Notes under the pieces: generated by a model
Seen by the model: only the letters and a program-made list of their open reading frames with translations
The model's database searches: none
Told to the model about the DNA's origin: nothing
Translations under genes and position numbers: made by a program
Shown here: positions 14,730 through 60,239 of the stretch, piece after piece
How positions within the stretch are numbered: position 1 is the stretch's first letter
How the letters are laid out: each line of letters begins with the position of its first letter
DNA from: Eledone cirrhosa
Taxonomy: Eukaryota
DNA: 64,000 nt
Assembly: GCA_964016885.1 (NCBI GenBank)
Contig: OZ024742.1
Span: forward strand, 283,960,001 to 284,024,000
Direction: 5' to 3'

Positions 14730-14802
14730 ACATACATACATACATACATACATACATACATACATACATACATACATACATACATACATACATACATACA
14801 CA

Positions 14803-20315: not shown

Positions 20316-20922
20316 GTGATAACACATATTTAGACGTTAACTTTGCCTTTCATCCTTACGGGGTCGATACTGGGTAATTGCTGGCCTTGTGCCAATAGTA
20401 GAAACAATTATTATTGTAGTGGATTGGCAGTATCAGTAGAGGGTCGGACGCCAAGCATAGAGTTACGGCCCTTGCCATTCTGAGTTCAAATCCCACCGAG
20501 GTTAACTTTGCCTTTCATCCTTACGGGGTCGATAACATAAAGTACCAGTAATGCACTGGGTAATTGCTGGCCTTGTGCCAATAGTAGAAACAATTATTAT
20601 TGTAGAGGGTTGGCAGTGGATTGGCAGTATCAGTAGAGGGTCGGACGCCATGCTTTGCAGCAAAGAGTTACGGCCCTTTATGGTCTGAGTTCAAATCCCG
20701 CCGAGGTTAACTTTGCCTTTCATCCTTACGGGGTCGATAAAATAAAGTACCAGTAATGCACTGAGATAATTGCTGGCCTTGTACCAAAAGTAGATTCACC
20801 CCTAGATGTCTTTATGGGTCATTTTGAAAAGCCCTGGTTTAAATACAGATCAGGTCTATGATCAAAGTAAACCTATGATTTAAAGTAGACTTATGATTAA
20901 AGTATATATCATCATTATCGTC

Positions 20923-21030: not shown

Positions 21031-21984
21031 TACACAGAAATTGAACGAAGTCTATGTTACACTGTCTTCTGTAATCAATAACGTAATCCATGATACATTT
21101 AAAAAAAGACGATATTATAAACTGCATTAGGAGAAAATTAGCGACGGAAATATATGCAATATTTTTATAAGTGTTGTAATATAATGGCCGCTAAACGGAA
21201 GTGTTGACATTTGAACATTTTAAAGAAGGGAATCTTTAAATAAGCTATAAAATATATTTAATCAACAGCCACGAAATTTAGTACATAAATGATGTAATAT
21301 TCATTCATTATTTATTTAAAGGCGGTGAATTGGCAGTATCGGTAGAGGGTTGGACGCCATGCTTTCTAGCACAGTTACGTCCCTTTACGGTCTGAGTTCA
21401 AATCCCGCCAAGGTTAACTTTGCCTTTCATCCTTACGGGGTCGATAAAATAAAGTACCAGTAATACACTGGGTAATTGCTGGCCTTGTGCCAAAAGTAGA
21501 AACAATTATTTATTCAAAGTAATCCAACTTATTTTACAAACGGGGTAAAAGAAATATATTCTGGACGCAGTCCCGCACTCCTTTCTTTATTATAGTTAAG
21601 ATCACCATCTGGGGTTGCGTCATGCTCACACGTTCCATCTTTGGCATGGTTTCAACAACTGGATACACTTCCTAACACCAACCACATTACGGAGTGTACA
21701 GGATGCATTTTACCAGTACACGCAAGTGGATTGGGTACATTCTGTTGCACCACCAACACTACCACATTACAGAGTGTATTGGGTGCATTCTATTGTGGCA
21801 TCCGACTCACCATATTCAGAGTGCACGTCTCTATTTGTATGTATTCACTTTATGAATAGCGGAGGCGCATTTAATTGGAGAACAAAAGCCGACTCTGAAC
21901 CGCCAGAGTGATTTGAAAACACCTGTACATATACTCCAACAGGTAAAAAAAGAACGACAGAGTCTGAGAAAGATTTTAGATCTG

Positions 21985-22120: not shown

Positions 22121-22571
22121 GGCGTAAGAGATGGGGTCTATGACAGTGGCAGTTCTGCTCTTCCATGTTCGGACACATTGCACCTGTCAAGAGTGTATTT
22201 TCATATTTATAACCATTAACTACCCCATTACCCCATACTAACACATACCAACCTAGCAACAAAGATCGTAGACAGTAGCCGTGTGTCCGTTTACGGTAAA
22301 TATATTAATCCCAACTCTAATTCCAATCTTTATTCTATCTTTTTTCTAATATTTAATTATAACTTTAACTCACACACCTCTTCCTATCTACGCCTTTATC
22401 CTCACCTAAACAAACAATAAAACACAAAACGTTTACCGTTTTATCTCGCATATTTGTTCTATTTATTTCCTCCTCTCAGCCCCTTTATAGCTTCCCCTTC
22501 ATTCCTCGATTACGTAACACTGACTGGAACTGCCCGTAACTACAACGACTATACAACCCTATATATGTAGA

Positions 22572-22806
22572 CGCATGGCTTAGTGGTTAGAGCATTGAGG
22601 TTGTGAGTTCGATTCTCGGACCAGGCTTTGCGTTGTGTTCTTGAGCAAGACACTTTATTTCCCTTTATTTCACTCCGCTGTAGAAATGAGTTTGTGATGT
22701 CACTGGTGCCAAGCTGTATCAACATTTGCCTTTCCCTTGGACAACATAGGTGGCGTGTAAAGAGAAGACTGGTACGCATGGGCGACTGCTGGTCTTCCAC
22801 AAACAA
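22572..22806 (+). mobile_element. tRNA-derived CORE-type SINE (other copies ~4920-5035 -, ~6120-6385 -, ~10945-11060 +, ~40390-40620 +)
   Basis: TGGCTTAGTGG A-box, GAGTTCGATTC B-box, CORE-like GTGTTCTTGAGCAAGACACTTTA. Confidence 0.75.
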
Positions 22807-23714: not shown

Positions 23715-24000
23715 GTGAGGTCGCTTCTTTGAGTTTGGCTCGTTCGTTTCTTCTTCTTCTTCTTCTTCTTACGACAGCAATATATTATTATTATTATTAT
23801 TATTGGTGGATTGGCAGTATCGGTAGAGGGTCGGACACCATGCTTTGCAGCAAAGAGTTACGGCCCTTTATGGTCTGAGTTCAAATCCCGCCGAGGTTAA
23901 CTTTGCCTTTCATCCTTACGGGGTCGATAAAATAAAGTACCAGTAATACACTGGAATAATTGCTGGCTTTGTGCCAAAAGTAGACACAATTATTATTATT

Positions 24001-27000
24001 AGTCTAATCGGACGTCTTTTGCTCGCTCCCAGTAAGTCGCTTTATTTGCCTGTTAAAATTATTTGTTGTTAAATATTTCTTGTAGTGTAAGGGATATAAG
24101 CCCTTAAATTTTGCCCTGTGAAGGGGAAAGTATAATATTTGGGCCTTTTGGCCGAAATATTTGAACATTTTACTTTTTTTTTTAAATTATTTAAGAAAAA
24201 CATGGCTGAGCCACGTCCCCCAGGAATATGTCTGCTGCCGTGTGACAACGGCGTAAAAGTTGAGAGGAGGATTAGTGAAATTCATACAACAGACACCACC
24301 TTAAACAACGTGAACAAAGACAACAACACTGAGAACACTAATTTTGAAAACATTACCACACCAACTACAACAATAACAGCGTCAACCAAAATACAGACAA
24401 CAGAAAAAAATGACAACAAATGCAACAACGATATTAACCCCACTAACAAGAAAATAAACAACGACAACACCAACAGCAACAATACAAATTGCATCGAAAA
24501 CAACAACAACGGTGACACCAAAAACACAACCAACTACAACAGTGATAACAGCAACAACACCAACAACACCGTTTGTAGCAGTAGCAACAGCAACAGCACC
24601 AATAACAATCCCAATAGCAGCAGTAGCGGCAGCAATAATGGAGCCACTTCTTTCGCAGGGATGGCCCGAAATATAGAGATAATGCTAGTCACGGAAGAGG
24701 AGGCAGTCGCAAGAGCCATGGTGTCAAGAAATGACAATAGAGTTTCCCTGAAACCTCCACCCGATTTCTTCAAAGACCAGCAGCTGCGCACGGTGACTTA
24801 ACGCACCGTAAGCAAAATGTCACATCGGGTGGAGAGAGCCACAGAGGCTCCGCGCAAAACCCACATCACCCGAGGCAAAAAGTACGCCACAGTAGACGTA
24901 CTTTTCGCCACCCACCAAGAGGCGAAGTTTCACTCTTTGGAAACCCTAAAGGGTGAGGAGATAGACTTGGTGCTCTCCTACTGCGGGCAGAAATTTGTGA
25001 GGGTCAAAGTGACGCAGTTCCCGCCCGACGTGCCCATACCTTGGCTGGCCGCGTCTGTACTGGCTGGAATCGAGGATAAGCCAATACAGACTGACCAGGA
25101 GTGCGTCGAGGCCATCCGGGACATCATAGACCTCAAAGAAGGGCTCCAACTCCCTATAAGCGTGGAAGGAAGGCGCCCAAAGTGCTATCTCTGTGGGCAG
25201 AAGGGTCACCTCAGGGCCTTCTGCCCGCAGAAGACAGCCAAGAAGAGCCCCCCCCTCCTTCTGACGCCTGATCCGTTGCTACCAAGAGCAGGGCAGGAAA
25301 CAGAGGCAGAAGACCCTTCCATGGTGAGTAGGAGGGCCACGTCCGTGGCACCCATACCAAGGCCACGGACAACTAAAGCGGCAACACCAACAGTCACAGT
25401 AGCTACACCGGCGGCAAAATCGCCGGAGAGGGCTCCACTACCACCACCAACAGCAGTGGAGCTCATATCCCTCCCAGACGCTACGAAATCTGACATGGAG
25501 TTTGAGGCGGGAGGGAATGGCAAACGGTCTGCCACAAAAAGAAAAAAGGAAAAACCCGTTAGCTTCACGCTCCAAAAGCGAAGACAGACAAAGAGGAGTA
25601 AAGGCTGCAAGAAGACTTGCAGCAACACCACCACCATCACCATCACCACCACAAGCATCACCAACAACAACAACCACACAACCACCACCAACATCACCAA
25701 AAACACCAACATCGCAAACACAACAAAACACACACACCCAACAGCAACAACAAGAAAACAGCAACAAAATCACCCCTCCCCCCAAAAAGTACACAGCCAT
25801 AAACATGGCAAATAAAGAACTCATATAAAGCAGCAACATATAAAGCAGCACACAGACATCACATAAAAAACTACTACACCCCACCAAGACCAAGAACTCT
25901 CCCGACAAACATAAACATCATTGAAATCAAAATAGAACATTACAAACTTTTAAAACAAAAATTCCCCAACGCAGTTGGAGACTTCAGAGGGTCGGTTACC
26001 AAGAGGATATACACCGACATCCTCTTGGAAACACCCATGACCGGCCAAAGGGACGGTTCTACTGTCCATTCACCACACGATCAGGGTTGCCGTGTTTTTC
26101 GGAGAGGCTTGGATCTCGCCATACGGGCCATCTTCCTGGACCCAGAAGGTAAGTCGGTAGTGCTGGACGTGACCGGCAGCGAAGGCACCACCGACTTTCA
26201 GGCTAGTAGCCGTCTACGCCCCGACAGGGGCAGGACGGCAACATTTCTTCAGACGTCTAGAGACCTTTCTTGGAACGTCCCGCTCTTTAGTGTTAGTGGG
26301 CGACTGGAACGGTATCTTAGATGCACGCTGGGATTATGTGGGGCTAGTAGACAGGGCAGGAGGGTGTAAAAGCCTCAACAACCTGCTCAGACGTTTTGAA
26401 CTGTCTGACAGGCATAGACTGGATTATCCGAATGTGCCAATATAGACATGGGCAAACCGCATCGGGTCATCCAGATCGTATTTAGATAGGGTATTCTGTA
26501 GGGAAACAGATAAGGCTAGTGTAGGTTGTCCTCAATTTAAAGTAGTCGACTACACGGACCACAAATTTGTGATCTGTGAAGTTGACTTAGATAGACTCCA
26601 TAGGCAAGGGCCCGGCTACTGGAAGCTGAACGCGTCGTTCCCGGCGCGCAAAGCTTACAGAGACCGGATTAGCGAATTAGTTAAGCGTGCGTTGACGGGT
26701 GCGATCGTCAACAACAGGTGGTGGTTTACCCTGAAAAGGGCTATTAGAGTAGAATCGATAAAGTTTAGCAAAGGAGTAGTGATAGAGGAAAATAGAGTAG
26801 AGGGAGAGTTAGTTAGAAAGCTAGCAGAGGCGTTTAGGACAGGCATCGCAACCGACATGCTTGCGGCGAGATTGGCCTTCGACCAATTCTTCAACGCAAA
26901 GCATGAAGGCTGCGTTGTCAGAGCTAGAGCGCGTGCTCTAAGACACGAGAGGACGAAAGCCGTTCAATGGGCCCGGGTGGTGGAGGCGTGACGTGGAAAC

Positions 27001-29555
27001 AAGTCCACAATTTGGTCTTTGCCTGATCAAAACGGGCGCATGTTGCTCGAACCCGAGCAGATGTGTGCGGCTTTTCAACAGCACTTTGCTCAATTGTTCG
27101 GGAGCGGCGGCGGGCCGGATCGGAGTATGGACTTCGGTGCATACCTCGACGGACTGCCGCGGCTCTCGACGACCGCAGCGCAGTGCTGCGAAAAGCCGAT
27201 AACAGCAGGTGAAATACGGGAAGCGATATCTGACTGCACGAGGGGTAAATCGCCAGGTTTGGATGGTCTGCCCTACGATCTTTATGCGTATATGCTAGAC
27301 TTGTTCGGTGACCTCTTGGCAGATGTCTACTGCAACTGGCAGCAGAACGGGAGCATTCCCAGTTTTGTGAGCCGGGGAGCGGTGGCGCTGCTGAGAAAAG
27401 ATCCGAACAAGGGGGACGTTATAGACAACTTGAGGCCCATAACTCTGCTAAACGCAGAGTTTAAGATTTTGGCCAAGGTGTTAGCAAAGAGATTGGCGCT
27501 TGTCGTCGGTGATCTGGTGGAAGAGGCGCAGACATGCGCCATCCCGGACAGATCCATCCACGACAATCTCCATCTCATGCGATACATCATAGAGAGGGTG
27601 GTTAAGGAACCTGGCACGGGTCGGGCCCTGATCAACTTGGATCAATCTAAAGCATTTGATAGGGTCGACCATCGGTACCTGGCTGCGGTCCTCGAGGCGG
27701 CCGGCTTCGGGCTCGTTTTCAGGGGCTGGATTGCTGCGATGCACAGTGACATCTGCTCGATTGTGAGGGTGAATGGTCACCTGGTGCAGCCTTTCAGCAT
27801 CATGCGCTCGGTCCGCCAGGGTTGGCCCCTCTCGTCCCTCTTGTACGTACTGGCCGTAGAGCAGTTACTGCACAAATTGGTGACGATGAGGGGTGTCCCA
27901 CGCGAACTGGGATGCGGGAGATCCGTGTCAGCTTACGCCAACCACGTCACCGTGGTGGTGTCGAGCACCAAACACGCCCAGATGCTCGGCACTGCTCTCA
28001 ATGAATACGAAGCAGTGACAGAAGCAAAGATAAACCAAGAAAAGTCGGTGGGCTTGCAACTCGGCACCTGGAGAGGCAGGTCCATGCCGTCCGACAGCGT
28101 CGTGGGGCGCTGGACGAAAGGACCGGTTAAATTGCTCGGAGTCTGGTTCGCTCCGGACCTCCAGATGGAGAAAAACTGGAGCGAGGTGACGAGCAGGGTG
28201 GCCTCTTTCACCCAGAAATGGGCCGAGAGGAGGCTGTTTCTGAAAGGTCGGGCAGAGGTGGCGAATGCGTACATAGCGTCCGTCATCTGCTACCACCTGA
28301 CCGTCGTACCTTGCCGCCGCCCAACTCTGACCAAAATGGTGCACCTTCTCTTCCGCTTCTTGTGGAAGTGACGTGTTCCCATGGTCAGACGATCCATTTG
28401 CTGTCAACACCCGTTGCGTGGAGGACTAGGCATGCCGTAGCTGATGATGCGCAAACATGCGCTGAGGCTGCGACATCTCTGGCGCTTCTTTGACGGTGAA
28501 CAGGTGTGGTCGCCGTTTGCCAGACGCACTTTTCCCCAGCTCGTCTCCTTGGCGGAGCTGCATTCCTGTATCAGGAAAAGACCGAGGGATAGCGCTTGGA
28601 AGCTGGAATGTCTCCAAGCGCTCACCGCCCTCTACCAGCTGGGCACTAGTATCGGTGGAACATCCACCTCGGCGTTCTATAGAGGGCTAGGGGAGAGAAA
28701 GAGCGACGACGTTCTCGGGGACACCCTGGGCGTCGAAAACGATTAGCTGTTCGCTCTCTTCAAGAGAACTTTCAGACCGGGGCCTATGGATAACTTCCAG
28801 AAATCCCTGGCCTGGCAGTGCTACCGGGGAGCGTTGCCGGTTCGGGATAAGCTTTACAGGCACGGAGGTGCAGTCAGCCGAGCCTGTCCGAGATGGGCGT
28901 AGGGCGACGAAACCGTCCTGCACGCACTCATTCAGTGCCCGAGGATTGCTGACTTGTGGAGCTATGTTGAACAGCTGCTGTCGCGTGTAGGACGGATCCG
29001 GTTATCGACTGAGTCCATTGTGCAGATAGCCCCGCCATCCTCCTTTAAAGAGGAGGAAGGGCAGGCAGTTTTTATCTGCCTGGTGGCCATGGCGAAAGAG
29101 ATTGTGTGGTGGACAAGGTTGAAAGGGTTGAAGACAGACACTTTCCTCTTCGGCCAATCCCTGATTAACTTATTCAAGTTTCATTTGAAGGGGAAAATCA
29201 GGGTGGAGAGGCAAGTGCTGTCTTCTAGTAAGTTTGTTGAAAGGTGGGTGAAAGTGGCGAGTCTGGTCCGAGTGAACGGGCCCGCTCTGAGTATGCGCCT
29301 TATGTCTGAGGAGTGGGAAAACTGAGAGAGGGCGCTTTCCCTGGTGGTCAGGGTCGTCGTGGTCTTTTTTGTGTGGTTTTCGCTACGAGTGACCCCTTTT
29401 TGGGGAACTTTTGTTATTTGAATATTTTTTTATTTCTAGCCCGATTTTGTTATAACCTGTTTACATGACCAAAACCCACTTTGTATCGTCCTGTACTGTT
29501 CTGTGCCGTCTCTTCGTGTTAGCCCTTGTGGCCAATAAAGAAACCATTATCATTA
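24001..29555 (+). mobile_element. Tx1/L1-group LINE copy A (degenerate, near full length)
   Basis: ORF1 with CYLCGQKGHLRAFC knuckle; ORF2 with APE (VYAP, GDWN, SYLDR, TDH), RT (KSPGLDG, RPITLLN, DQSKAFDRV; YADD mutated to YANH) and C-terminal zinc motif; several stops; AATAAA and ATT tail; begins in the (ATT)n tail of SINE 23804-24000. Confidence 0.93.
27019..28371 (+). pseudogene. Tx1 copy A reverse transcriptase domain (catalytically mutated)
   Basis: RT motifs are present but the catalytic motif reads YANH; premature stops flank the segment. Confidence 0.88.
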
Positions 29556-29709
29556 GACGGCCCTTTATGGTCTGAGTTCAAATCCCGTCGGGGTTAACTT
29601 TGCCTTTCATCCTTACGGGGTCGATAAAATAAAGTACCAGTAATGCACTGGGATAATTGCTGGTCTTGTGCCAAAAGTAGAAACAATTATCATTATTATT
29701 ATTATTATT

Positions 29710-32700
29710 GAATGCTATGGTTGACAGAGGCTCGGCTCTGTAAGGTATTGTAAATTTTGACCGCTATAACAATTGTAAATTGTTTAAAACTTTAACCAAA
29801 TTGTAGAAAAAAACACCCTCCTCCTCGTGAGAGGGGTCTTTCTGCCCGTTATTTGGCCCTTCGGGGTTAAATAACCGCTTATTGGGGTTTTGTGCCCAAT
29901 ATTTATTTTAAACCCATAAAACATGGCTACGAAAAAGAATTTTCATAAGTCACTCCCACTCATTCCGTCTTCTTCTTCCTCAATCGTCACTACACCAGAG
30001 AGAAGATTGTCTCTCTCCCTCCCTTCTCTTTCGCAAGCGACGCCAGTAAAGAAAAATCACGTAGAAAGCGTGCAACATTTCTCCACGACGACGACGACGA
30101 CAACGACGAAAAAGGTGTGCGGTAAATACGAAAACCCATTTCATTCGTCTGACGTCATGAATAATAGCAGTAGCAGCCGTAATAACAGCAGCAGCAGCAG
30201 CAGCAACAGTGACAAGGAAAACAACAGTAGCAGCCGCAACAACATCAGCAGCAGCATAAACAACAACAGCATTAGCAGCAACAGCAACAACAACAACAAC
30301 CACAGCAACAGCGGCGGCGGCAGTAGTCGTAGTACCTGCAGCAACAACAAAAGTAACAGCAGCTCTGACGACAACAACAACAACAACAGCAGCAAAGAAA
30401 AACCAATCTCGTTTGCAAGTATCGCAAAGAACCTGGAAACCATCCTCATAACAAATGAGGAATTAGAGGAAGCGAAGAAGATGGTGACGAAAACCGGACA
30501 CCGAGCAATCTGCAAGGCAGCCGAAAAATTTTTCGAAACCCAACAGCACTGTACGGTCACGTACCGTACAGTAAGCACAAAATCCTGTAGGGTTGAAAGA
30601 GCCACAGAGGCTCAAATACAAAAAGCCTTAGAGTCTGTGTGGCAGCGGAAAACGCACATCACCCGAGGCAAGAAATATGCCACCGTAGACGTGCTTTTTG
30701 CCACACCCCAGGAGGCAAAGGGTCAATCCTTAGTGACCCTAAGGAGCGAGGAAATGGTGTTGGTGCCCTCCTACTGCGGGCCAAAAATTGTGAGGGTCAA
30801 ACTGACCCCCCCCCCCCCCCCCGGGATGGCCCCTTCTTGGCTGGCCGCGTCTGTCCTCGTCGGAATCGAGGACAAAACAACTGTACTGCAAGTACAGAAA
30901 AGAGTAAGAGAAGATTGGGTCGGCACCTCCATTGAGATGTTAATCGCTGTGGATCGAAGACTCACCTCAGGGCCTTCTGCAACGAGAAGACCCTGAGAAA
31001 GGAGAAAACCCCCCTCCTTCCGAAACCGGCTCCACTGCTACCAGCAACAAGACAAGCGGCAACCAGGAACGATAGGTCCGTGGCACCCATACCCACGCCA
31101 CGGAAATCAAGAACAGCAGCAGCAGTGGAAGTATTAACAACAACAACAGTAATACCAAATGCAGCTGCAACAGAGACTCCACTGCAAACATCACCAACAA
31201 CAACAAGTGAAAGAGTGGAGCTGGTACCCCTCCCCGACCTCACAGAATCAGACATGGAGTGTGAGGTGGGAGAGGGATGGCAAAAGGTCGTAAGAAGGCA
31301 CAAACGCAGAAGCAGCGCATCGTCGCCTTCGAAAAGGGAGGAAAGAAATGAAAAAAGGGTAAAGGTTACTGCAAAGAGACTCACAGCAGCAACACCACCA
31401 ACACCATCACCACTCACACTAGCACCACCATCACCACCGGCGACAACCCCACCGCCAACAACAACAACACCTTCAACACCACCACTACAAGCACCAACAT
31501 CGCAAACACAATAAAACACACACAGCCAGCAACAATGACAAGAAAATAGCAGAACCACACCCCACCCCAGAAAAACAAATGCACGGCAATAAATACACAC
31601 AACAAGAAACTAATGACTTACATAATTGAACACACAGACATTTCACAGCACGACTACATAATACCAGCACCAATCAAAACGCCAACGAACATAATACCGG
31701 AGAGTATATTCGGACATACTCATAGAAGAGCCAACGACCAGCCGAAGGGACGATTCAACGGTCCCTTCACCAGACGATCAAGTGAAAAGGGATGGAAAAA
31801 CCATCCTTCCTCTACGAAAAGTACGGTAAGTGGTCTTTCCCATCTTTTCCACTCTATTTTTAAACATGACCTCAATCAGAATAGGCAGCATAAATGCGCG
31901 TGGCTTGGGGTCGTCATGGAAGCAGGGTCTAGCATAGGCTGTCCACAATTCAACATAGTCAGCTACACAGACCACAAATTCGTGATCTGTGTGCTTGACT
32001 TAGATAGGCTTCATAGACGAGGACCCGGCTACTGGAAGCTAAACGCGTCCTTACCAGCGCGCAAGTCCTACAGAGACCGGATTAGCGAACTAGTTAAGCG
32101 GGCGTTGACGGGGGCTATCGTCAACAAGTGGTGGTTTGCTCTGAAAAGAGCGATTAGAATAGAATCCATTAGGTTTAGTAAGGCTTTAGCAATAGAGAAA
32201 AATAGAGCAGAGGGAGAACTAGTTAGAAAATTAGATGAGGCGCTTAGCAAAGGCATCGCGACCGACGTGCTTGCGGCGAAATTGGCCCTTGACCAATTCT
32301 CCAATGCAAAGCACAAAGGCTGCGTTGTCAGAGCTAGGGTGTGTGCTCTCAGACACGAGGGGACGAAAGCCGTTCAATGGGCCCAAGTGGCGGAGGCACG
32401 TCGTGGCAACAAAGCTACGATCCGGTCTTTGGTGGACCACGACGGGCGCATGCTACTCGATCCCGGGCGAATGTGTGAAGCTTTTCAGCGACATTTCGCT
32501 CAGCTGTTCGGGGGCAGCGGTGGGCCGGGTCGAGGGATGGACTTTAGTGTCTACCTCGACGGACTGCCGCGGCTCTCGGCCACTGAGGCGGAGTGTTGCG
32601 AAAAGCCGACAACAGCCGCTGAAGTACGGGAGGCAATGACTGGCTGCACAAGGGGTAAATCGCCTGGTTTGGATGGTCTGCCCTATGAACTTTACGTACA

Positions 32701-34902
32701 GATGCCAGACTTGTTCGGAGGCCTCTTGGCGGACGTCTACTGCAACTGGCAACAGACGGGAGAATTACCAGCTCTGTGAGCCGAGGAGCGGTGGCATTGC
32801 TGAGAAAGGATCCGAACAAGGGGGATAACATAGATAATTTCAGGCCCATAACTCTGCTAAACACAGTGTTCAAGATTTTGGCCAAGGTGCTAGCAAAGAG
32901 GTTGGCGCTTGTCGTTGGTGGTCTGGTGGGAGAGGCGCAGACATGCGCCATTCCCGACAGATCCATCCACGGGTGGGTCCTTGATCAATTTAGATCAGTC
33001 GAAAGCTTTCGATAGGGTCGACCATCGTTACCTAGCGGCAGTCCTGAGGGCGGCTGGCTTTGGGCCCGTCTTCAGAGGCTTGATCGCTGCCATGCACAGC
33101 GACATCTGCTCTGTGGTGAGAGTGAACGGTCACCTTTCGGAACCGTTCAACATCATGCGCTCGGTCCGCCAAGGATGTCCCCTCTCGTCCCTCTTGTACG
33201 TATTGACTCTCGAGCCATTACTGCACAAACTAGAGACGTTGAGGGGCGTCCCGCGCGAACTAGGATGCCGGAGATCCGTGTCAGCATATGCGGACGATGT
33301 CACCGCAGTGGTGTCGAACGCCAAACACATCGAGGCGATCGGCACTACACTAAGAGAATACGAAGCGGTGACAGGAGCAATGATCAACCAGAAAAGGTCA
33401 GGGGCCTGCAGCTCGGCACCTGGTGAGGCAGGTCCATGCCGTCCAACAGCGTCGTCGGACGCTGGACGGACGGACCGGTTTAATTGCTAGGGGTCTGGTT
33501 CGGTCCGGACCTCCAGACGGACAAAAACTGGGACGAGGCGACGAGCAGGGTGGCTTCTCTCACCCAGAAATGGGCGGGGAGGAAGCTATCCCTGAAAGGT
33601 CGAGCGGAGGTGGCTAACGCGTACATCGCGTCTGTCATCTGCTACCGCCTGACCGTCGTACCTTGTTCTAAGCTCCGCCTGACTGCGCTGGAGCGTTTGC
33701 TCTTTCGCTTTTTGTGGAAGGGACGCGCTCCGATGGTCAGGCGGTCCATCTGCTGTCAACACCCGCTACGTGGAGGGCTGGGAATGCCGTGGCTGATGAT
33801 GCGCAGACACGCGCTCAGGCTACGACATCTCCACCTCTTCCTCGACGGTGATCAGGTGTGGTCGCCGTTTGCTAGACACGTATTTCCCCAGCTCGTTTCC
33901 TTGACGGAGCTGCAGTCCTGGGTCAAGCGAAGACCGAGAGGGAGCGCCTGGAGACTGGAATCTCTTCAGGCGCTCACAACCCTCGACCAATCGGGCAATG
34001 TGATCGGTGGAAACTCCACCTCGGCGTTCTATAGAGGATTAGTGGAGGGGAAGAGCGACGACGTACTTGGGGAAACTCTAGGCGTCGACGAAAATCAACT
34101 AGCCAATCTCTCCGGAAGAACTTTCGGCCCGGGACCTATGGACAACTTCCAGAAATCTCTGGCCTGGCAGTGCTACCGAGGAGCCTTGCCAGTTCGGGAT
34201 AAACTCTACAGTCATGGAGGTGCCGTCAGCCGGGCATGTCCGAGATGCGCGCAGGGCGACGAAACCGTCCTGCACGCACTCGTCCAGTGTCCGAAAATTG
34301 CTGACTTGTGGGTTTATGTCGAACACCTTCTGTCGCGTGTAGGACGGATCCGGCTATCATCTGAGTCCATCGTGAGGATTGCTCCGCCCTCTTCCTTTAG
34401 CCGGGAAGGGCAGGCAGTTTTTATCTGTCTGGTGGCCATGGCGAAAGAGATAGTATGGTGGACACGTTTGAAAGGGCTGAAGACGAGCACTTACCTCTTC
34501 GGTGATGCCCTGATTAACTTTTTCAAATTTCATTTGAAAAGGAAAATCAGGGTAGAGAGGGAAGTGCTCTCTTCCCACCATTTTGTTGAAAGATGGGTAA
34601 GAGAAGCAAGAATGGCCCGAGTGAATGGGCCTACTCTGAGTACGTATATGTAAATTAAAGGTGGAAAACTGGGAGAGGGCACTTGCCTTGGTGGTCAGGG
34701 TCACTGTGGCCTTTTACTGGGCTTTCTCCACAAATGTCCCTCCGAAGTCTCCCCCCTATTGGGGAATTTTTCATTGTAATTTTTTTGTTACATCCTCTGT
34801 TTTTGTTTTTTACACGCAGAAATGCCCATTTGTACCGTCCTGTATTGTCCTGCACTGTCCTTAATGTCTACTTTATGTAAACCCTTGTGGTTAATAAAGA
34901 AA

Positions 34903-34936
<34 letters not shown>
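29710..34936 (+). mobile_element. Tx1/L1-group LINE copy B (intact termini, most of the endonuclease deleted)
   Basis: ORF1 MATKKNF... from 29923; RT with YADD at ~33287; CPRC..ETVLHALVQC; ~570 bp of EN missing relative to copy C; (ATT)n at both ends. Confidence 0.95.
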
Positions 34937-34937
<1 letters not shown>

Positions 34938-35298
34938 AGGGTGGTGGATTGGCAGTATCGGTAGAGGGTCGGACCCCATACTTTGCAGCAAAGAGTTACG
35001 GCCCTTAATGATCTGAGTTCAAATCCCGCCCAGGTTAACTTTGCCTTTCATCCAACGAGGTCGATAAAATAAAGCACCAATAATAAACTGGGGATCAATT
35101 TAATCAACTTTTCCCCCTCCCAAGATTGCTGGCCTTGTGCCTAAATCTGAAACAATAATTGGTAGTATCGGTTGAGCGTCAGCAGACACCTTGCTGTGCA
35201 ACATAGAGTTACGGCCGTTTACACTCTGAGTTCAAATCCCTTATGCCTAAAGTAGAAACAATTATTATTAAATGTATTATGTTTGTTGTGTTTTTTAG

Positions 35299-35497: not shown

Positions 35498-36224
35498 GTA
35501 ATCTTACTTTAGTCATCATCATCATCATCATCATCATCAACATAGTTCAACTGCAGCAGTAACCACAATCCTTTATCACTCATTTTATGTATGTATGTAT
35601 GTATGTATGTATGTATGTATGTATGTATGTATGTATGTATGTATGTATGTATGTATGTATGTGTGTATGTATGTATGTATATGTGTATGTATGTATGTAT
35701 GTATGTATGTACGTACGTATGTATGTATGTATGTATGTATGTATGTATGTATGTATGTGTGTATGTATGTATGTATGTATGTATGTATGTATGTATGTAT
35801 GTATGTATGTATGTATGTATGTATGTATGTATGTCGGGTGACTCTTGGGTGCTACTGGTAACATGTAACCCAGTACAACCTGTCGCATAGACGGGTCGTC
35901 GGCGACTAAACGGGCAACCCCACCAAGTTTACTTGGTGAGGAGGGTGATTTTGGACACCCTGCAGGACAAAAACCAAAACCTGACAAAGGGCGGAAGAAC
36001 TCATACGAGTCAACGGCCATCCAAAAATCTGTAAATATATATACACATGTATACATGTGTATGTATGTATGTATATATATATATATGTGTGTATATATGA
36101 ATATACATGCATGCATGTGCATGTATGTATATATATATATATATATGTATATACATGTATGCATGTATATATATATATATACAATATATTAACAAATGGA
36201 AACTATATTTATAAAACCATATTT

Positions 36225-36288
36225 ATTTCACTATACATATTTCAAGGGCCACCAGAGCAAACTATGGTGCGCTTTCATCAGATAAAAT
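36225..36288 (-). ncRNA. Minimal type-I hammerhead ribozyme with intact core
   Basis: ATTTTAT-CTGATGA-AAGCGCACCA..TGGTGGCCCTT-GAAA-TATGTA-TA-GTGAAAT. Confidence 0.78.
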
Positions 36289-37939
36289 ATAATATAGGTT
36301 AGTTTTATAAATAAATATTGACATACCCTTAAAAAATGCAACCATTCTGGTTGGAATCTCCTGGATAGTGGAGTTATTAGATTTATTGTTTGTTTATTAT
36401 GCAAATTAGTGTCGGAAAGGTTTAAAAACAGTATATTTAAATTAAACCGTTGGAATAGGGAAAAAAGAGAAAATAAAGAGAAAAAAACGAAAGAAAGAAA
36501 GAAACCTGAGTATATTTTAGTGAGAGAGAATAGCGTAATTTTGAGAGAAGAGGCGAAGAAATAAATATGGCGTGGATGAATACCGTAAGATGGATAAACA
36601 ATAATTGTTTCTACTTTAGGCACAAGGCCAGCAATTACCCAGTTCATTACTGGTACTTTATTTTATCGACCCCGTAAGGATGAAAGGCAAAGTCAACCTC
36701 GGCGGGATTTGAACTCAGATCGTAAAGGGACAAACAATAATAATAACCAATAACAGATAATAATAAAGATGGATAAACAATAATAAAGTTGAAGAATTTA
36801 TCTAATGTTTAATTAATAAATTTGATTAAATGTTTAATTAATAATTTATCAATTCAAACCGTAGTTTAAATGTTTAAATGTGTATGTTATATTATTAAAG
36901 TTGAGACCTATATATTATTATTAAAGAATATATATTATTAAAAAATATGTTATTATTACAAAACCATATATAATTTTATTATTTATTATTAATTCTTAAA
37001 AAAAATTTGTAAGTTTAAAATATCCGAATATTTCTAAGCTCATGGAATTTCTGAGAGTTTACAGAAGAATAATCCCTTATTTGTAATAGCAGTAGAGCGT
37101 AAAGGAAATTGCTAGCGATTTATTAATAATTTAGATAGCTCTAAGGATTAAATGCTATAAAGTTAAGATGTTAAAACATTTTAATTATCCATTTTAATAA
37201 TGTAATTAGAGTATGAATTTTATGTTATTTTATAGCAAGTTATAAATTCATAACTCCAACCTGTTATACAGTTATGACTGTTAAAAACATAAATTTGTTT
37301 GCTATAACGTGTTAACATTTAAAAATTCATTCATTGGAATATATCCAAAGCATAAACCATAAAAAAATCTTTCATAAGAGTATATCTGTAGAATATATTT
37401 AAAGTATAAATTTTATATATATATATAAACATTTTGACATACATATACATACACATGCACATATATATATATATACATCAAGCATTTGAAAAATATATAA
37501 ATACAAAATATACAATATAAAATATGAAATATGAATTATAATTTAAATTATGAATTATGAATTCTTTGTACCCATCATAGAAATTTTCAGAAAAAACTCC
37601 TTCTTCAAATCTTTCAGTACGTTTATCAAGAAAAGTTTTTCAAGAAAAAATCCTTTCAAGATAGTTATAAGCAATCATATGAAGGAATCCAATGAATTAT
37701 CGATAGGTTTAATAAAGATGAGTTATGTATTACAATTTATATATATATTTAAACGTTGAGTTCAATCTATGATTGCAAGAACTGAAAAGATTACTTCTTA
37801 AATTAACAGAATTTTTACTATTAAAAAGTAATCTTTTTACTATTAAAAAGTAATCTTTTCAGTTCTTGCAAACTACAGGTGAAGTCATTCTTTTCCTTTT
37901 TTCAAATATTCCTAACTGTACCAAGGATTTCACACATTT

Positions 37940-38053
<114 letters not shown>

Positions 38054-38760
38054 TTTGTTTTTGAGTGTGGAACGGTCAAACATTTATTTACTTCAATGAC
38101 AACAAAGATTATTACATTTCATACGAAACAACAATTATTCAAAAGCAACAGATAAATTTATTCAACAACAAAAAAACAGCGATAAATCTTTTTTAAAACA
38201 TCTCTCAACGAACGTGGAAGAAAGAAGTATCAATTTATTTACTATACACAATAATATACTCTATGGGTTCACTAAACCTGCTAGAAACAGCAGCTAACTC
38301 TCCCCCATATCTCACCCCTCCCTACTGTTTTAAATTTAGAAAACACACATTAGACAACCATGCAGAACAACTCCATCGCAGCTCTGTTGTTCGGCTGGCA
38401 TCGTCTACGCGCGTGTTGCGCAAGTACTGTGAAACAATAAATTTCAATACTTCTTTGCACAGAGATAATATCCATAGGCGAAACTACAATTGTCACTGCT
38501 GACGCAGCTCCTGCTTCGGCAGTCCAGGTCTGCAATTCATTCACCCAGTGCCTGGCAGACAAAAAAGTGCTGCAATAAAATGGGTGGTGCAACCTAACTT
38601 TGGTAACTTACTGACCCCGAGCAACGCCGGGCTTTAATGCTAGTTTACATAATAAACCAACAATAAATCTAATAACTCCAACATCCAGGAGATTCCAACC
38701 AGAATGGTTGCATTTTTTAAGGGTATGTCAATATTTATTTATAAAACTAACCTATATTAT

Positions 38761-38824
38761 ATTTTATCTGATGAAAGCGCACCATAGTTTGCTCTGGTGG
38801 CCCTTGAAATATGTATATTGAAAT
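38761..38824 (+). ncRNA. Minimal type-I hammerhead ribozyme with intact core (sense to the host pre-mRNA)
   Basis: ATTTTAT-CTGATGA-AAGCGCACCA..TGGTGGCCCTT-GAAA-TATGTA-TA-TTGAAAT. Confidence 0.75.
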
Positions 38825-38955
38825 AAATATGGTTTTATAAATATAGTTTCCATTTGTTAATATATTGTATATTTACTCCAATAATTTGTTGAGTGCTTTA
38901 TATCAGTTATAAAAATATTTTGCTTGTTGTATCCCAACAAATTAAATATAACCTC

Positions 38956-52832: not shown

Positions 52833-53466
52833 GTATTTTTTTTATTTTATCTTGTTTACTTTTCCTACATATAATTTTATTATAGTCTGACTAATTGATT
52901 TTTTTTTATTAATTCCTTCATTGAGCAAAACTGGTAATAGCTGGACACCTTCATATGTATGTCTCACTGTAGTAGAAAAGTGAATGATAATGATGATGAT
53001 GTGTATTGGTTGTAGATAATTGCGATAAGTAACCAATGTGTACATCTGTTGGAAAGCGAATGTGTTTTATCCGTGGGAAAAGTGATTTCCCCGATCACTA
53101 GGTTTATGGAAGAAGAATGAAAATACCCGCTACTTTTATATGAGATTTATTGTGTAGTATTTCAAGACGGATATACATGAATTAACATGTTGTTATAGCC
53201 AAAAGATATGAACAACAAGCAACGAGGAAATAATTTGTATTGCACGAGGAACGTGTGTGATATATGTTTGAGTAGGATAATAATAATAATAATAATAATT
53301 GTTTCTACTTTAGGCACAAGGCCAGCAATTACCCAGTGCATTACTGGTAATTTATTTTATCGACCCCGTAAGGATGAGAGATTTGAACTCAGATCGTAAA
53401 GGGACGTAACTATGCTGGAAAGCATGGCGTCCGACCCTCCACCGATACTGCCAATCCACCGCCCTT

Positions 53467-53467
<1 letters not shown>

Positions 53468-53507
<40 letters not shown>

Positions 53508-56500
53508 TTTCTTTATTAACCACACGGGTTTACATAAAGTAGACATTAAGGACAGTGCAGGACAATACAGGACGGTACAAATGGGCATTTCTGCGTGTAA
53601 AAAACAAAAACAGAGGATGTAACAAAAAAATAACAATGAAAAATTCCCCAATAGGGGGGAGACTTCGGAGGGACATTTGTGGAGAAAGCCCAGTAAAAGG
53701 CCACAGTGACCCTGACCACCAAGGCAAGTGCCCTCTCCCAGTTTTCCACCTTTAATTTACATATACGTACTCAGAGTAGGCCCATTCACTCGGGCCATTC
53801 TTGCTTCTCTCACCCATCTTTCAACAAAAAGCTGGGAAGAGAGCACTTCCCTCTCTACTCTGATTTTCATTTTCAAATGAAATTTGAAAAAGTCAATCAG
53901 GGCATCACCGAAGAGGTAAGTGCTCGTCTTCAGCCCTTTCAAACGTGTCCACCATACTATCTCTTTCGCCATGGCCACCAGACAGATAAAAACTGCCTGC
54001 CCTTCCCGGCTAAAGGAAGAGGGCGGGGCAATCCTCACGATGGACTCAGATGATAGCCGGATCCGTCCTACACGCGACAGCAGGTGTTCGACATAAACCC
54101 ACAAGTCAGCAATTTTCGGACACTGGACGAGTGCGTGCAGGACGGTTTCGTCGCCCTGCGCGCATCTCGGACATGCCCGGCTGACGGCACCTCCATGCCT
54201 GTAGAGTTTATCCCGAACTGGCAAGGCTCCTCGGTAGTACTGCCAGGCCAGAGATTTCTGGAAGTTGTCCATAGGTCCCGGGCCGAAAGTTCTTCCGGAG
54301 AGATTGGCTAGTTGATTTTCGTCGACGCCTAGAGTTTCCCCAAGTACGTCGTCGCTCTTCCCCTCCACTAATCCTCTATAGAACGCCGAGGTGGAGTTTC
54401 CACCGATCACATTGCCCGATTGGTCGAGGGCTGTGAGCGCCTGAAGACATTCCAGTCTCCAGGCGCTCCCTCTCGGTCTTCGCTTGACCCAGGACTGCAG
54501 CTCCGTCAAGGAAACGAGCTGGGGAAATACGCGTCTAGCAAACGGCGACCACACCTGATCACCGTCGAGGAAGAGGTGGAGATGTCGTAGCCTGAGCGCG
54601 TGCCTGCGCATCATCAGCCACGGCATGCCCAGACCTCCACGTAGCGGGTGTTGACAACAGATGGACCGCCTGACCATCGGAGCACGTCCCTTCCACAAAA
54701 AGCGAAAGAGCAAACGCTCCAGCGCAGTCAGGCGAGGCTTAGGACAAGGTACGACGGTTAGGCGGTAGCAGATGACAGACGCGATGTACGCGTTAGCCAC
54801 CTCCGCTCGACCTTTCAGGGATAGCTTCCTCCCCGCCCATTTCTGGGTGAGAGAAGCCACCCTGCTCGTCACCTCGTCCCAGTTTTTGTCCGTCTGGAGG
54901 TTCGGACCGAACCAGACCCCTAGCAATTTAACCGGTCCGTCCGTCCAGCGTCCGACGACGCTGTTGGACGGCATGGACCTGCCTCACCAGGTGCCGAGCT
55001 GCAGGCCACCGCTCCTCAGCTCACAGAGCTGGGAATTCTCCCGTTCTGTTACCAGTTGCAGTAGACGTCCGCCAAGAGGCCTCCGAATAAGTCTGGCATC
55101 TGTACGTAAAGTTCATAGGGCAGACCATCCAAACCAGGCGATTTACCCCTTGTGCAGCCAGTCATTGCCTCCCGTACTTCAGCGGCTGTTGTCGGATTTT
55201 CGCAACACTCCGCCTCAGTGGCCGAGAGCCGCGGCAGTCCGTCGAGGTAGACACTAAAGTCCATCCCTCGACCCGGCCCACCGCTGCCCCCGAACAGCTG
55301 AGCGAAGTGTCGCTGAAAAGCTTCACACATTCGCCCGGGATCGAGTAGCATGCGCCCGTCGTGGTCCACCAAAGACCTGATCGTGGCTTAGTTGCCACGA
55401 CGCGCCTCCGCCACTCGGGCCCATTGAACGGCTTTCGTCCCCTCGTGTCTGAGAGCACGCACCCTAGCTCTGACAACGCAGCCTTTGTGCTTTGCATTGA
55501 AGAATTGGTCAAGGGCCAATTTCGCCGCAAGCACGTCGGTCGCGATGCCTTTGCTAAGCGCCTCGTCTAATTTTCTAACTAGTTCTCCCTCTGCTCTATT
55601 TTTCTCTATTGCTAAAGCCTTTCTAATCCTAATGGACTCTATTCTAATCGCTCTTTTCAGAGCAAACCACCACTTGTTGTTGACGATAGCCCCCGTCAAC
55701 GCCCGCTTAACTAGTTCGCTAATCCGGTCTCTGTAGGCCTTGCGCGCTGGTAAGGACGCGTTTAGCTTCCAGTAGCCGGGTCCTCGTCTATGAAGCCTAT
55801 CTAAGTCAAGCACATAGATCACGAATTTGTGGTCCGTGTAGCTGACTATCTTGAATTGTGGACAGCCTATGCGAGACCTATCTATTTCCCTACAAAATAC
55901 TCTATCTAGATATGATCTGGATGACCCTATGCGATTTGTCCAAGTCCACATTGGCACATTCGGGAAATCCAATCGGTACCTGTCAGACAGTTCAAAACGC
56001 CTGAGCAGGTTGGTGAGGCTCTTGCACCCTCCTCCCCTATCCGCTAATCCCACACAGTCCCAGTGTGCATCTAAGATCCCGTTCCAGTCGCCCACTAACA
56101 CTAAAGAGCGGGACGTTCCAAGAAAGGTCTCCAGACGCCGGAAGAAATCAGGCCGCCCTGCTCCTGTCGGGGCATAGACGGCCACTAGCCTGAAAGCTTG
56201 CTCGTCTCCGCTGGTCACGTCCAGCACCACCAACTTACCCTCTGGATCCAGGAAGATGGCCCGTATGGCAAAATCCAAACCACTCCGAAAAAGCACAGCA
56301 ACTCCTTCCCCCGATCCAGGACGGCTGGGAGATGCGTACACATCGTAGCCGCCGAAGATCGGTGCGAAGGGCCGTGCTTCGGAGATTCTGGTCTCGCTGA
56401 TGGCCACTACATCTATGTTTAGTGACCTGAGGTCGTTGAGCAGGTGGCCCTGCTTCCATGACGACCCCAAGCCACGTGTATTTATGCTGCCTATTCTGAG

Positions 56501-58903
56501 TGAGGTCATGTTGAAATGGAGTGGAAAAGATGGGAAAGACCACTTACCGTACTTTTCGTAGAGGAAGGATGGTTTCTCCACCCCTTTTCACTTGATCGTC
56601 TGGTGAAGGGACCGTTCAATCGTCCCTTCAGCTGGTCGTCGGCTCTTCTATGAGTATGTCCGAATATACTCTCCGGTTGAGAGTCCCTCCTAGGTCTCTG
56701 AAATCACCAACTGCGTTGGGGAATTTCGTTTTAATGTTTGTGTATTGTTTTTGTGCTATTTTTACCAGTCTTATGTTCGTTGGTGTTTTGATTGGTGCTG
56801 GTATTATGTAGTCGTGCTGTGAAATGTCTGTGTGTTCAATTATGTAAGTCATTAGTTTCTTGTTGTGTGTATTTATTGCCGTGCATTTGTTTTTCTGGGA
56901 GTGGGGTGTTGTTCTGCTATTTTCTTGTCGTTGTTGTTGGGTGTGTGTGTTTTGTTGTTGTGTTTGCGATGTTGGTGCTTGTGGTGGTGGTGTTGAAGGT
57001 GTTGTTGTTGTTGGCGGTGGGGTTGTCGCCGGTGGTGATGGTGATGTTAGTGTGGGTGGTGATGGTGTTGGTGGTGTTGCTGCTGTGAGTCTCTTTGCAG
57101 TAGCCTTTACCCTTTTTTCATTTCTTTCCTCCCTTTTCGAAGGCGACGATGCGCTGCTTCTGCGTTTGTGCCTTCTTGCGACCTTTTGCCATCCCTCTCC
57201 CACCTCACACTCCATGTCTGATTCTGTGAGGTCGGGGAGGGGTACCAGCTCCACTCTTTCACTTGTTGTTGTTGGTGATGTTTGCAGTGGAGTCTCTGTT
57301 GGAGCTGCAGTTGGTATTACTGTTGTTGTTGTTAATACTTCCACTGCTGCTGCTGTTCTTGATTTCCGTGGCGTGGGTATGTGTGTCACGGACCTATCAT
57401 TCCTGGTTGCCGCTTGTACTGTTGCTGGTAGCAGTGGAGCCGGTTTCGGAAGGAGGGGGGTTTTCTCCTTTCTCAGGGTATTCTCGTTGCAGAAGACCCT
57501 GAGGTGAGTCTTCGATCCACAGCGAAAGCATTTCGGGCGTTTACCCTCAACACATATGGGCAGTTGAGTGCCGTTATCGAAGTCTATCACATCCGGGATA
57601 GCTTCGATGCACTCCTGGTTGGTTTGGATTAACATCTCAATGGAGGTGCCGACCCAATCTTCTCTTACTCTTTTCTGTACTTGCAGTACAGTTGTTTTGT
57701 CCTCGATTCCGACGAGGACAGACGCGGCCAGCCAAGAAGGGGCCATCCCGGGGGGACGTGGGTCAGTTTGACCCTCACAATTTTTGGCCTGCAGTAGGAG
57801 GGCACCAACACCATTTCCTCGCTCCTTAGGGTCACTAAGGATTGAGCCTTTGCCTCCTGGGGTGTGGCAAAAAGCACGTCTACGGTGGCATATTTCTTGC
57901 CTCGGGTGATATGCGTTTTCCGCTGCCACACAGACCCTAAGGCTTTTTGTATTTGAGCCTCTGTGGCTCTTTCAACCCTACGGGATTTTGTGCTTACTGT
58001 ACGGTACGTGACCGTACAGTACTGTTGGGTTTCGAAAAATTTTTCGGCTGCCTTGCAGATTGCTCGGTGTCCGGTTTTCGTCACCATCTTCTTCGCTTCC
58101 TCTAATTCCTCATTTGTTATGAGGATGGTTTCCAGGTTCTTTGCGATACCTGCAAACGAGATTGGTTTTTCTTTGCTGCTGTTGTTGTTGTTGTCGTCAG
58201 AGCTGCTGTTACTTTTGTTGTTGCTGCAGGTACTACGACTACTGCCGCCGCCGCTGTTGCTGTGGTTGTTGTTGTTGTTGCTGCTGCTGCTGTTATTGTT
58301 GCTGTTGCTGCTAATGCTGTTGTTGTTTATGCTGCTGCTGATGCTGTTGCGGCTGCTACTGTTGTTTTCCTTGTCACTGTTGCTGCTGCTGCTGTTATTA
58401 CGGCTGCTACTGCTATTATTCATGACGTCAGATGAATGAAATGGGTTTTCATATTTACCACACACCTTTTTCGTCGTTGTCGTCGTCGTGGAGAAATGTT
58501 CCATGCTTTGCACGTGATTTTGGAAGCTATTTTTCTTTACTGGCGTCGCTTGCGAAAGAGAAGGGAGGGAGAGAAACACATTTAGAGAAGGGAGGGAGAG
58601 AGACAATCTTCTCTCTGCTGTAGTGACGATTGAGGAAGAAGAAGACGGAATGAGTGGGAGTGACTTATGAAAATTCTTTTTCGTAGCCATGTTTTATGGG
58701 TTTAAAATAAATATTGGGCACAAAACCCCAATAAGCGTTTATTTAACCCCGAAGGGCCAAATAACGGGCAGAAAGACCCCTCTCACGAGGAGGAGGGTGT
58801 TTTTGTCTACAATTTGGTTAAAGTTTTAAACAATTTACAATTGTTATAGCGGTCAAAATTTACAATACCTTACAGAGCCGAGCCTCTGTCAACCATGGCA
58901 TTC
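53468..58903 (-). mobile_element. Tx1/L1-group LINE copy C (intact termini and EN, RT core deleted)
   Basis: Very close to copy B; ORF1 58690-56628 with one frameshift and CFRCGSKTHLRVFC; EN GSINTRGL, AISETR, VYAP, GDWN, SYLDR, TDH; ~660 bp of RT missing at ~55005; (ATT)n at both ends. Confidence 0.95.
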
Positions 58904-58939
<36 letters not shown>

Positions 58940-59122
58940 TGTTTCTACTTTTGGCACAACGCCAGCAATTACCCAGTATATTACTGGTACTTCATTTTAT
59001 CGACCCCGTAAGGATGAAAGGCAAAGTTGACCTCGGCGGGATTTGAACTCAGAATGGAAAGGGCCGTAATTCTATGCGTCAAAGCATGACGTCCGACCCT
59101 CTACCGATACTGCTAATCCACC

Positions 59123-59181
<59 letters not shown>

Positions 59182-60238: not shown

Positions 60239-60239
60239 A

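Follow-up and report, generated by a model that had tools for sequence, protein, structure and literature searches.

A UCON3-type SINE of Eledone cirrhosa shares a short 3' tail and an insertion preference with Tx1-type LINEs, its probable drivers

Mobilization of a short interspersed element (SINE) by a long interspersed element (LINE) of the Tx1 type has been proposed in crocodilians, where Kojima (2015) inferred from the targets, with no shared 3' end, that Tx1-Mar moves SINEU (PMC4494074; this and the other papers cited here are used within the available parts of their text). The same paper describes the Tx1 families Kibi and Koshi, which target the microsatellites (TC)n and (TTC)n, respectively. 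SINEs with L1 tails make up 3 of the 58 pairs catalogued by Ohshima (2012), in maize/sorghum and Chlamydomonas (PMC3472496), Deu/Nin SINEs have been paired with CR1, L2, Crack or RSg-1 (Ohshima, 2013; PMC3747384), and UCON3 SINEs, reported from chordates, nematodes, cnidarians and xenacoelomorphs, have RTE, CR1 or unknown tails (Kojima, 2020; PMC7245038). In the available text of Martelossi (2024; PMC11481361) the partners of bivalve SINEs belong to four other clades, Tx1 being absent, and Tx1 is likewise absent from that of Kojima (2018; PMC5786205). For octopus, the repeat classes tRNA-Deu, tRNA-Core and L1-Tx1 are listed unpaired by Marino (2022; PMC8967140) and in a 2026 Octopus annotation (PMC13282606), and L1-Tx1 is reported there as expanded and recently active. 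Three further papers were compared (PMC4758252, PMC5804259, PMC3531059), and the 'TX1' of Hayashi (2014) was set aside as it denotes mutant names and not Tx1. Here we describe a 64,000-nt stretch (the window) of the 3.0-Gb genome of Eledone cirrhosa (assembly GCA_964016885.1, contig OZ024742.1), in which the interval from 23.8 to 35.3 kb holds SINEs of a putative transfer RNA (tRNA) type and two Tx1-type LINEs. The reading that we favor, to which we give a probability of roughly 0.7, is that this SINE, with a UCON3 body and a Tx1-like 3' end, would be copied by the Tx1 protein encoded by open reading frame (ORF) 2 through recognition of a hairpin common to both ends. The literature searched holds no statement of this SINE-Tx1 pairing, although Ohshima and Okada (1994), Repbase, Dfam and SINEBase lie outside that search and may name the SINE or the pair.

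The studied interval is a one-strand nest of a SINE, Tx1-A, a truncated SINE, Tx1-B, a SINE and a deleted SINE, and most of the junctions between these elements are formed by an ATT run. Its parts are as follows.

23805..24000, + strand: full-length short-form SINE with an (ATT)n end, 95% to the SINE consensus
23812..23887, + strand: head of this SINE, with RNA polymerase III box-like motifs from a motif scan (A-box-like 23812-23823, B-box-like 23879-23887)
23894..23942, + strand: UCON3 conserved body domain of this SINE (by-eye alignment with four rows of Fig. S2 of PMC7245038: 36-38 matching columns out of 48-49)
24001..29554, + strand: Tx1-A, full-length dead copy (ORF1 from 24202, ORF2 end 29325)
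29522..29545, + strand: shared tail of Tx1-A (hairpin with CTTGT loop, AATAAA, GAAACC), then ATTATCATT
29557..29709, + strand: short-form SINE, 5'-truncated (tail 29662-29685, (ATT)n 29686-29709)
29710..34937, + strand: Tx1-B, 5'-complete dead copy (ORF1 from 29923, ORF2 end 34653, (ATT)n 34905-34937)
34880..34904, + strand: shared tail of Tx1-B (AACC/GGTT stem, CTTGT loop, AATAAA, GAAATC)
34939..35158, + strand: full-length long-form SINE behind the Tx1-B tail, 88% to the long consensus
35158..35268, + strand: SINE with an internal deletion, head and tail kept (sequence comparison)

The start of Tx1-A directly abuts the tail of the first SINE, and the (ATT)n of the truncated SINE holds the 5' end of Tx1-B. 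Tx1-A has suffered stops, frameshifts and the loss of ~245 nt at the start of ORF2, and Tx1-B a deletion in the endonuclease region along with frameshifts; the window contains three Tx1 copies, all of them broken.

An earlier, sequence-only reading of this window had claimed that the SINE and the LINE end in the same ~30 nt. The ends that it quoted are present at 29522-29545 (Tx1-A) and 34880-34904 (Tx1-B), and its SINE tails are real, but the copies bearing them lie upstream of the interval to which they had been assigned, at ~19978-20006 and 20383-20598, the SINE copies within the interval having slightly different tails. The sharing stood out above shuffled controls, while its extent had to be reduced to ~24 nt at 58-75% identity: the common tail reads CTTGTG-N8/9-GAAA-YM-(ATT)n, with 14-18 of 24 nt identical between the SINE and Tx1-A or -B. 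That (ATT)n follows every tail was borne out overall, except in the Tx1-A copy of the window, where only ATTATCATT comes after it. When the last 24 nt of the consensus sequences, with the ATT run excluded, were compared ungapped against 5,000 dinucleotide shuffles (shuffle means near 9), Tx1-A matched the short SINE form at 17/24 (p 0.0006) and the long form at 18/24 (p 0.0002), and Tx1-B matched them at 14/24 (p 0.011) and 16/24 (p 0.0014), respectively. The CR1-type, Penelope and two Dong/R4-type ends gave 8-11/24 (p 0.37-0.78). In a gapped, end-anchored test of nine ends, Tx1-A and two further families, Tx1-C and Tx1-D, reached p 0.0003-0.009 and Tx1-B 0.031 and 0.067, the latter, against the short SINE, not significant; the five other retroelement ends (CR1-type, RTE, two Dong/R4-type and Penelope) gave p 0.13-0.95. 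The four Tx1 families lie 21-29% apart in ORF2 DNA. Chance or convergence of AT-rich ends beside a common microsatellite is a very improbable source of the likeness, even though the match spans only ~24 nt, AGAAA and ATT are of low complexity and nine ends were tried against two SINE forms, since p falls to 0.0002-0.0007 with the ATT run excluded, a GC-rich loop and stem stand in fixed register, and target and duplication length agree independently; the insertion-site data given below already largely refute it.

The tail was then followed through the genome, where the reversed-pattern control returned 0 in every pattern search. Exact SINE tails numbered 153,053. With the letters upstream of the SINE tail forbidden, 4,154 tails were left, and all 30 loci examined were Tx1-A or -B. 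A residual set of 329 tails comprised, in 30 loci, 10 Tx1, 16 SINE variants and 4 without a match, with no other LINE, and the longer SINE end with foreign upstream sequence (798 matches) comprised, again in 30 loci, 23 SINEs and 7 stubs, none of them running on into a LINE. Across these two exclusion patterns, the 60 loci yielded no hidden LINE with a closer SINE-like tail. Tx1-C accounted for 2,287 exact tails (ORF2 homology at 25 of 30 loci) and Tx1-D for 155 (12 of 30). Among the loci examined, the tail motif outside SINEs was found only on Tx1-type LINEs, of four families.

The shared tail contains a small hairpin. Its loop is CUUGU, or CUGUGU in Tx1-D, and its stem is GCC/GGC in Tx1-A, AACC/GGUU in Tx1-B, GGCC/GGCC in Tx1-C, AGCC/GGCU in Tx1-D and (U)GGC/GCC(A) in the SINE. 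Three of the four stem pairs change on both sides across the eight aligned rows, a score reached by 0 of 500 shuffles, and slid controls scored lower. The hairpin is the predicted local fold in the tails of all four Tx1 families and in the isolated SINE tail. The shared 3' stem-loop that the sequence-only reading had proposed to look for is a putative one, supported by covariation and by the folds predicted for these tails, though not for the whole SINE RNA. By this comparison, the loop of the SINE is that of the Tx1 lineage, and its flanks can still form the stem. Loop, stem and AGAAA are retained by the short and the long SINE, by older relatives at 70-80% and by the four Tx1 families. The six letters that follow the stem differ freely from one SINE subfamily to another. 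AATAAA is kept in all four Tx1 tails and has drifted in the SINE tail, which would be expected if a poly(A) signal is required in polymerase II transcripts alone.

A role of this hairpin in recognition has to be weighed against several points. The eight rows are related and the structure was picked by the analyst, the C-G/G-C swap could in gapped alignments instead be the loss of one stem pair, and the fold predicted for the SINE RNA as a whole lacks the hairpin, whose pair probability there is 0.11 in the short and 0.01 in the long form and forcing it would cost 1.0 and 2.8 kcal/mol, respectively. The improbable fold in full-length RNA and the free variation of the six letters after the stem would suit a relaxed form of recognition, in which Tx1 moves the SINE by pairing of (AUU)n at the nicked target alone and the hairpin is a relic of the origin of the tail; we consider this unlikely, as it sits poorly with the persistence of loop, stem and AGAAA and with a CR1-type LINE that also ends in (ATT)n yet lacks the Tx1 insertion signature. 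Given Tx1 as the driver, the hairpin is probably its recognition signal. As a separate observation, the insertions at four loci (L170, L213, L333 and L336) consist of no more than the final 25-35 nt of the SINE or of Tx1-B, with hairpin and tail alone kept, and have full duplications.

Insertion sites were compared between the two elements. Duplications of at least 10 nt, mostly 13-20 nt long, were found for 75 of 336 SINEs as against 8 of 671 controls, and 70 of the 75 had ATTA or TTAT in their first 8 nt. Among 29 randomly sampled SINEs, ATTAT occurred no more than 39 nt before the 5' end in 18 and its reverse complement in 1, against a background of 7.5%. For Tx1, all 22 full-length copies (16/16 and 6/6) were preceded by an ATT run, and in a set of short-tailed Tx1-B copies (50 of 65 retrieved, 39 with a resolved 5' end) duplications of 12-23 nt were found in 15 of 39 as against 29 of 1,482 in the control. 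Both SINE and Tx1 insert at ATTAT on the same strand, with duplications of 12-21 nt. These data bear on the alternative that the SINE took its tail from Tx1 once and has since been moved by another LINE, either the (ATT)n-tailed CR1-type or a clade outside our sample. Such a CR1-type LINE exists, with 6,418 exact tails genome-wide, and SINEs with conserved domains are usually paired with LINEs of the CR1/L2 groups, yet the CR1-type tail matches at shuffle level, its duplications were 0/10 and 2/19, ATTAT flanked 2/19 and no copy was seen at the hotspot described below; Dong/R4 has an (AAT)n end and lies on the opposite strand, and RTE ends in (ATG)n and showed duplications in 0/20 with a finder that may suit RTE poorly. 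We regard this alternative as quite improbable, somewhat more so than relaxed recognition.

One base within another repeat is a hotspot, at which the following SINE of the window lies.

21321..21510, + strand: SINE at the hotspot base of another repeat (Tx1-B uses the same base elsewhere)

This base carries 2,122 insertions genome-wide, the first 100 of which are 99 SINEs and 1 Tx1-B, and three Tx1-B copies with duplications were found there. The absence of the CR1-type LINE from this base (0) is a weak test because CR1-type tails usually have at least three ATT units. The repeat itself (window 21200-21600; L371-L382) is an unclassified one with a single-base hotspot; its end on the other strand resembles what we take to be a Helitron-type start. 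At three loci (L077, L080 and L071) a truncated Tx1-B abuts the body or tail of a SINE and no duplication encloses the two, and these junctions are possible template-switch chimeras.

The divergence of SINE copies from their subfamily consensus has a median of 4.9% for the short form (10-90%: 1.7-9.2, n=127) and 11.7% for the long form (n=36). The corresponding Tx1 values were 1.8% for Tx1-B (n=46), 3.8% for Tx1-A (n=30), 5.3% for the cluster assigned to Tx1-C (n=8) and 7-11% for Tx1-D (n=4), with 7-21% for pooled Tx1-C 3' ends (n=22). A succession of Tx1 families therefore spans the age range of the SINE, and their activity overlaps. In addition, both elements, Tx1 by its 3' region, occur in contigs of all four other organisms looked at (from four studies); in three of the four, coverage of the SINE includes its tail region.

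Together, the link between Tx1 and the SINE is well supported by four partly independent lines of comparison, namely tail, stem, target and age. A stringent SINE-LINE pair shares its 3' sequence and terminal repeat, here 14-18 of 24 nt followed by (ATT)n, and also its insertion signature and period of activity, both of which were found in common. Given the same tail and the same kind of insertion site, the SINE is likely copied by the Tx1 enzyme, and a Tx1 lineage very probably drives it. The sequence-only reading had named "this Tx1 family" as the driver: tail, stem covariation, target, duplication length, hotspot and age all point to Tx1, whereas the partner comprises at least four families rather than the two copies of the interval. 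The grounds on which that reading could have failed did not materialize, as no other sampled LINE clade has a better tail, the match lies above shuffles and the SINE and Tx1 ages overlap.

Some of our data run counter to Tx1 as the partner. The tail match is short, and the nine ends compared with two SINE forms leave L2, I and other rare LINE clades without direct sampling. The two elements also differ in the length of the ATT run that they occupy, which for Tx1 is mostly long (2-25 units, median ~11) and for the SINE short (1-5 units). In a general survey Tx1 duplications were few (6/36 as against 3/70 in the control), because ATT arrays hide duplications, and the Tx1-B figure of 15/39 comes from a set selected for short tails. 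Tx1-B (median 1.8%) is younger than most SINE copies (4.9%), and the Tx1 age samples are biased to the best matches. Finally, no SINE nested within a Tx1 body was found, so that the order of insertion is not fixed, and it is ambiguous for SINE and Tx1 neighbours that lie tail to head.

The process that would account for these features begins with RNA polymerase III, which would use the A and B boxes of the SINE to make a transcript that includes the (AUU)n end. Tx1 ORF2 would then bind the small stem-loop ~15 nt before the repeat, as the covariation suggests, and a nick by its endonuclease in the strand opposite 5'-ATTAT would follow, as the duplications suggest. Pairing of the released 3' end with (AUU)n would prime reverse transcription, in line with the duplications and with known target-primed reverse transcription, and a cut of the second strand 12-21 nt further on would yield duplications starting with ATTAT, such as were seen for both elements. 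As each insertion leaves a new ATT run, SINE and Tx1 would pile into each other's tails, as seen in the window.

The abundance of the SINE was estimated from 40 evenly spaced 10-kb samples, in which it covered 10,025 of 400,000 bases (~2.5%) in 76 segments; 46 segments had a 3' end, and 25 of these were 5'-truncated. It had been called the most abundant SINE, and it is indeed abundant, but not of top rank, its repeat cluster (51 segments) coming second to an (ATG)n-tailed one (92) in the 400-kb census. The segments of that top cluster, among them L050:7809-8297, share their (ATG)n end with the local RTE LINE; a SINE driven by RTE is probably among them, which would make a second such partnership in the genome. 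At L064:6805-9999 there is an RTE-type ORF of more than 1,000 amino acids with a PHD finger behind the reverse transcriptase (RT) domain.

The SINE occurs in a short form of ~190 nt and a long form of ~215 nt, the short form lacking ~30 nt of the long one and being younger. It is short, non-coding and interspersed in many copies, with a simple-repeat tail, target duplications and 5' truncation. A motif scan with a general box consensus placed A- and B-box-like motifs at positions 12 and 79; neither ARAGORN nor Rfam called a tRNA or RNA family on it. The label Deu/Nin-type, given by the sequence-only reading, was not sustained: against the Nin domain (about 110-120 nt) of Lottia_Nin and Lsa_Nin_1, the scope of this comparison, with vertebrate Deu sequences outside it, only a gapped 28-column stretch with 17 matches was found by eye. 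The label may stem from pipeline classes, and the SINE is probably one of the known octopus OK/OR SINEs or pipeline classes. A CORE SINE was also rejected, as the 5' part of the CORE domain (45 conserved nt) was absent by eye and the 3' half of one CORE SINE giving a gapped likeness of 30/46 only. By sequence comparison the body is instead the UCON3 domain, ~50 nt directly behind the putative tRNA-type head; by-eye alignment with Fig. S2 gave 36/48 columns for UCON3, 38/48 for lamprey and 38/49 for snake and coral.

The ORF2 of the LINE has endonuclease (PF03372), RT (PF00078) and zf-RVT (PF13966) domains in Pfam, and scores much better against human L1 ORF2 (E 5e-46) than against R2 (1e-20). 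Its best named relatives are a protein of Argonauta hians (68% identity) and then a 'Transposon TX1 uncharacterized 149 kDa protein' (31%). In an RT tree of 142 sequences, built with no curated reference set and with deep nodes at 0.3-0.84, the local copies and the Argonauta protein form one clade within the L1/Tx1-type set, far from the local RTE, CR1 and Dong. A CCHC motif (CX2CX4HX4C) was seen by eye in both ORF1, in which Pfam detected no knuckle or ZCCHC3-type domain and no convincing match. The LINE is likely Tx1 rather than L1 proper. Features of the Tx1 clade present in it are an ORF2 of the L1 group with an apurinic/apyrimidinic endonuclease, RT and C-terminal zinc motif, and a target-site preference, the 22 full-length copies lying after an ATT run.

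A second nest lies in the window on the other strand.

53300..59123, - strand: SINE 59123-58940, (ATT)n, full-length Tx1-B 58903-53505, (ATT)n, SINE 53464-53300

Tx1-B tails ~6-7 kb apart were also seen at 55.42-55.45 Mb and 56.17-56.18 Mb (G000:C1), a spacing that fits head-to-tail arrays from repeated insertion into the tail of the previous copy. A Dong/R4-type LINE with an (AAT)n end occurs at 59491-60240 (+) of the window and at many loci (e.g., L074, L158), and its copies lie in the (ATT)n tails of Tx1, the CR1-type LINE and the SINE, in the opposite orientation and joined tail to tail (36 ends); thus, several elements compete for one microsatellite. Other repeats of the window are an (ATT)n-tailed 3' fragment of a CR1-type LINE at 60240-61300 (-), a 5'-truncated Dong/R4-type LINE with a restriction-like endonuclease within a (CATA)n array at 14780-15593 (+), a separate older SINE with a CORE-like body at 22570-22800 (14 matches in the 400-kb sample), an integrase fragment (PF00665, PF17921) of a long terminal repeat retrotransposon at 61697-63182 (+) and a C-terminal fragment of a Penelope-like element at 7272-7658 (-), which resembles a family ending in ATT then (TA)n. 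A long inverted repeat pair ~2.4 kb apart with a SINE inside (36190-36370 and 38690-38870) is probably a non-autonomous DNA transposon, and an open frame of 325 amino acids without repeat character at 43412-44389 (+) is possibly a host exon.

These results name the likely motor of a SINE that covers ~2.5% of the sampled genome, the octopod SINE expansion being a noted but unexplained genome feature, and would explain nested clusters of SINE, Tx1 and Dong at ATT repeats. A 24-nt signal with natural compensatory variants suits mutagenesis, and the pair offers a testable animal case for the proposal that the L1 group was once stringent about its 3' RNA and relaxed later. We see about even odds for the wider proposal that this is the first animal LINE of the L1/Tx1 group to recognize 3' ends stringently by a hairpin and to share its tail with a SINE partner, that it drove one of the two largest octopod short-repeat expansions, and that the two elements jointly initiate, lengthen and re-target ATT microsatellites.

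In comparison with the systems described, the pair resembles SINEU and Tx1-Mar in that a Tx1 driver is inferred from a common target preference, hotspots inside another repeat and concurrent ages; SINEU, by contrast, has small nuclear RNA heads, poly(A) tails and, in the available text, no LINE with its 3' end, whereas the SINE here is probably of tRNA type and shares a putatively structured 3' end and (ATT)n. Kibi and Koshi are also Tx1-group LINEs inserting into microsatellites, with no SINE partner described for them in that text, and here the target is (ATT)n/ATTAT. A common 3' stem-loop with compensatory changes and a short terminal repeat is known from UnaSINE/UnaL2, BivaV-SINE2/CR1 and BivaCORE-SINE2/L2 (PMC4176376, PMC4824008), the partners being of the L2/CR1 group there and of the L1/Tx1 group here, with a target bias and a shorter shared part. 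A structured 3' end common to a SINE and an L1-group LINE is likewise seen in the maize/sorghum and Chlamydomonas pairs, and the L1-clade pairs in the available catalogue of Ohshima (2012; PMC3472496) are from monocots and a green alga, none animal and none Tx1. The sequence-only reading had called the pairing unusual by contrast with Deu/Nin SINEs paired with L2/CR1; as the SINE is not Deu/Nin, that contrast was the wrong one, and the pairing is still unusual because tail-sharing with the L1/Tx1 group is catalogued, in the sources available, only in plants and algae. Like the UCON3 SINEs of Kojima (2020), the SINE has a putative tRNA-type head followed directly by a UCON3 body of ~50 nt, and it extends the domain to a mollusc and to a Tx1-like tail, neither of which is in the list given there. 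The case extends the established SINE-LINE paradigm and is not a new kind of system; what would be novel is a tail-sharing Tx1 partner in an animal.

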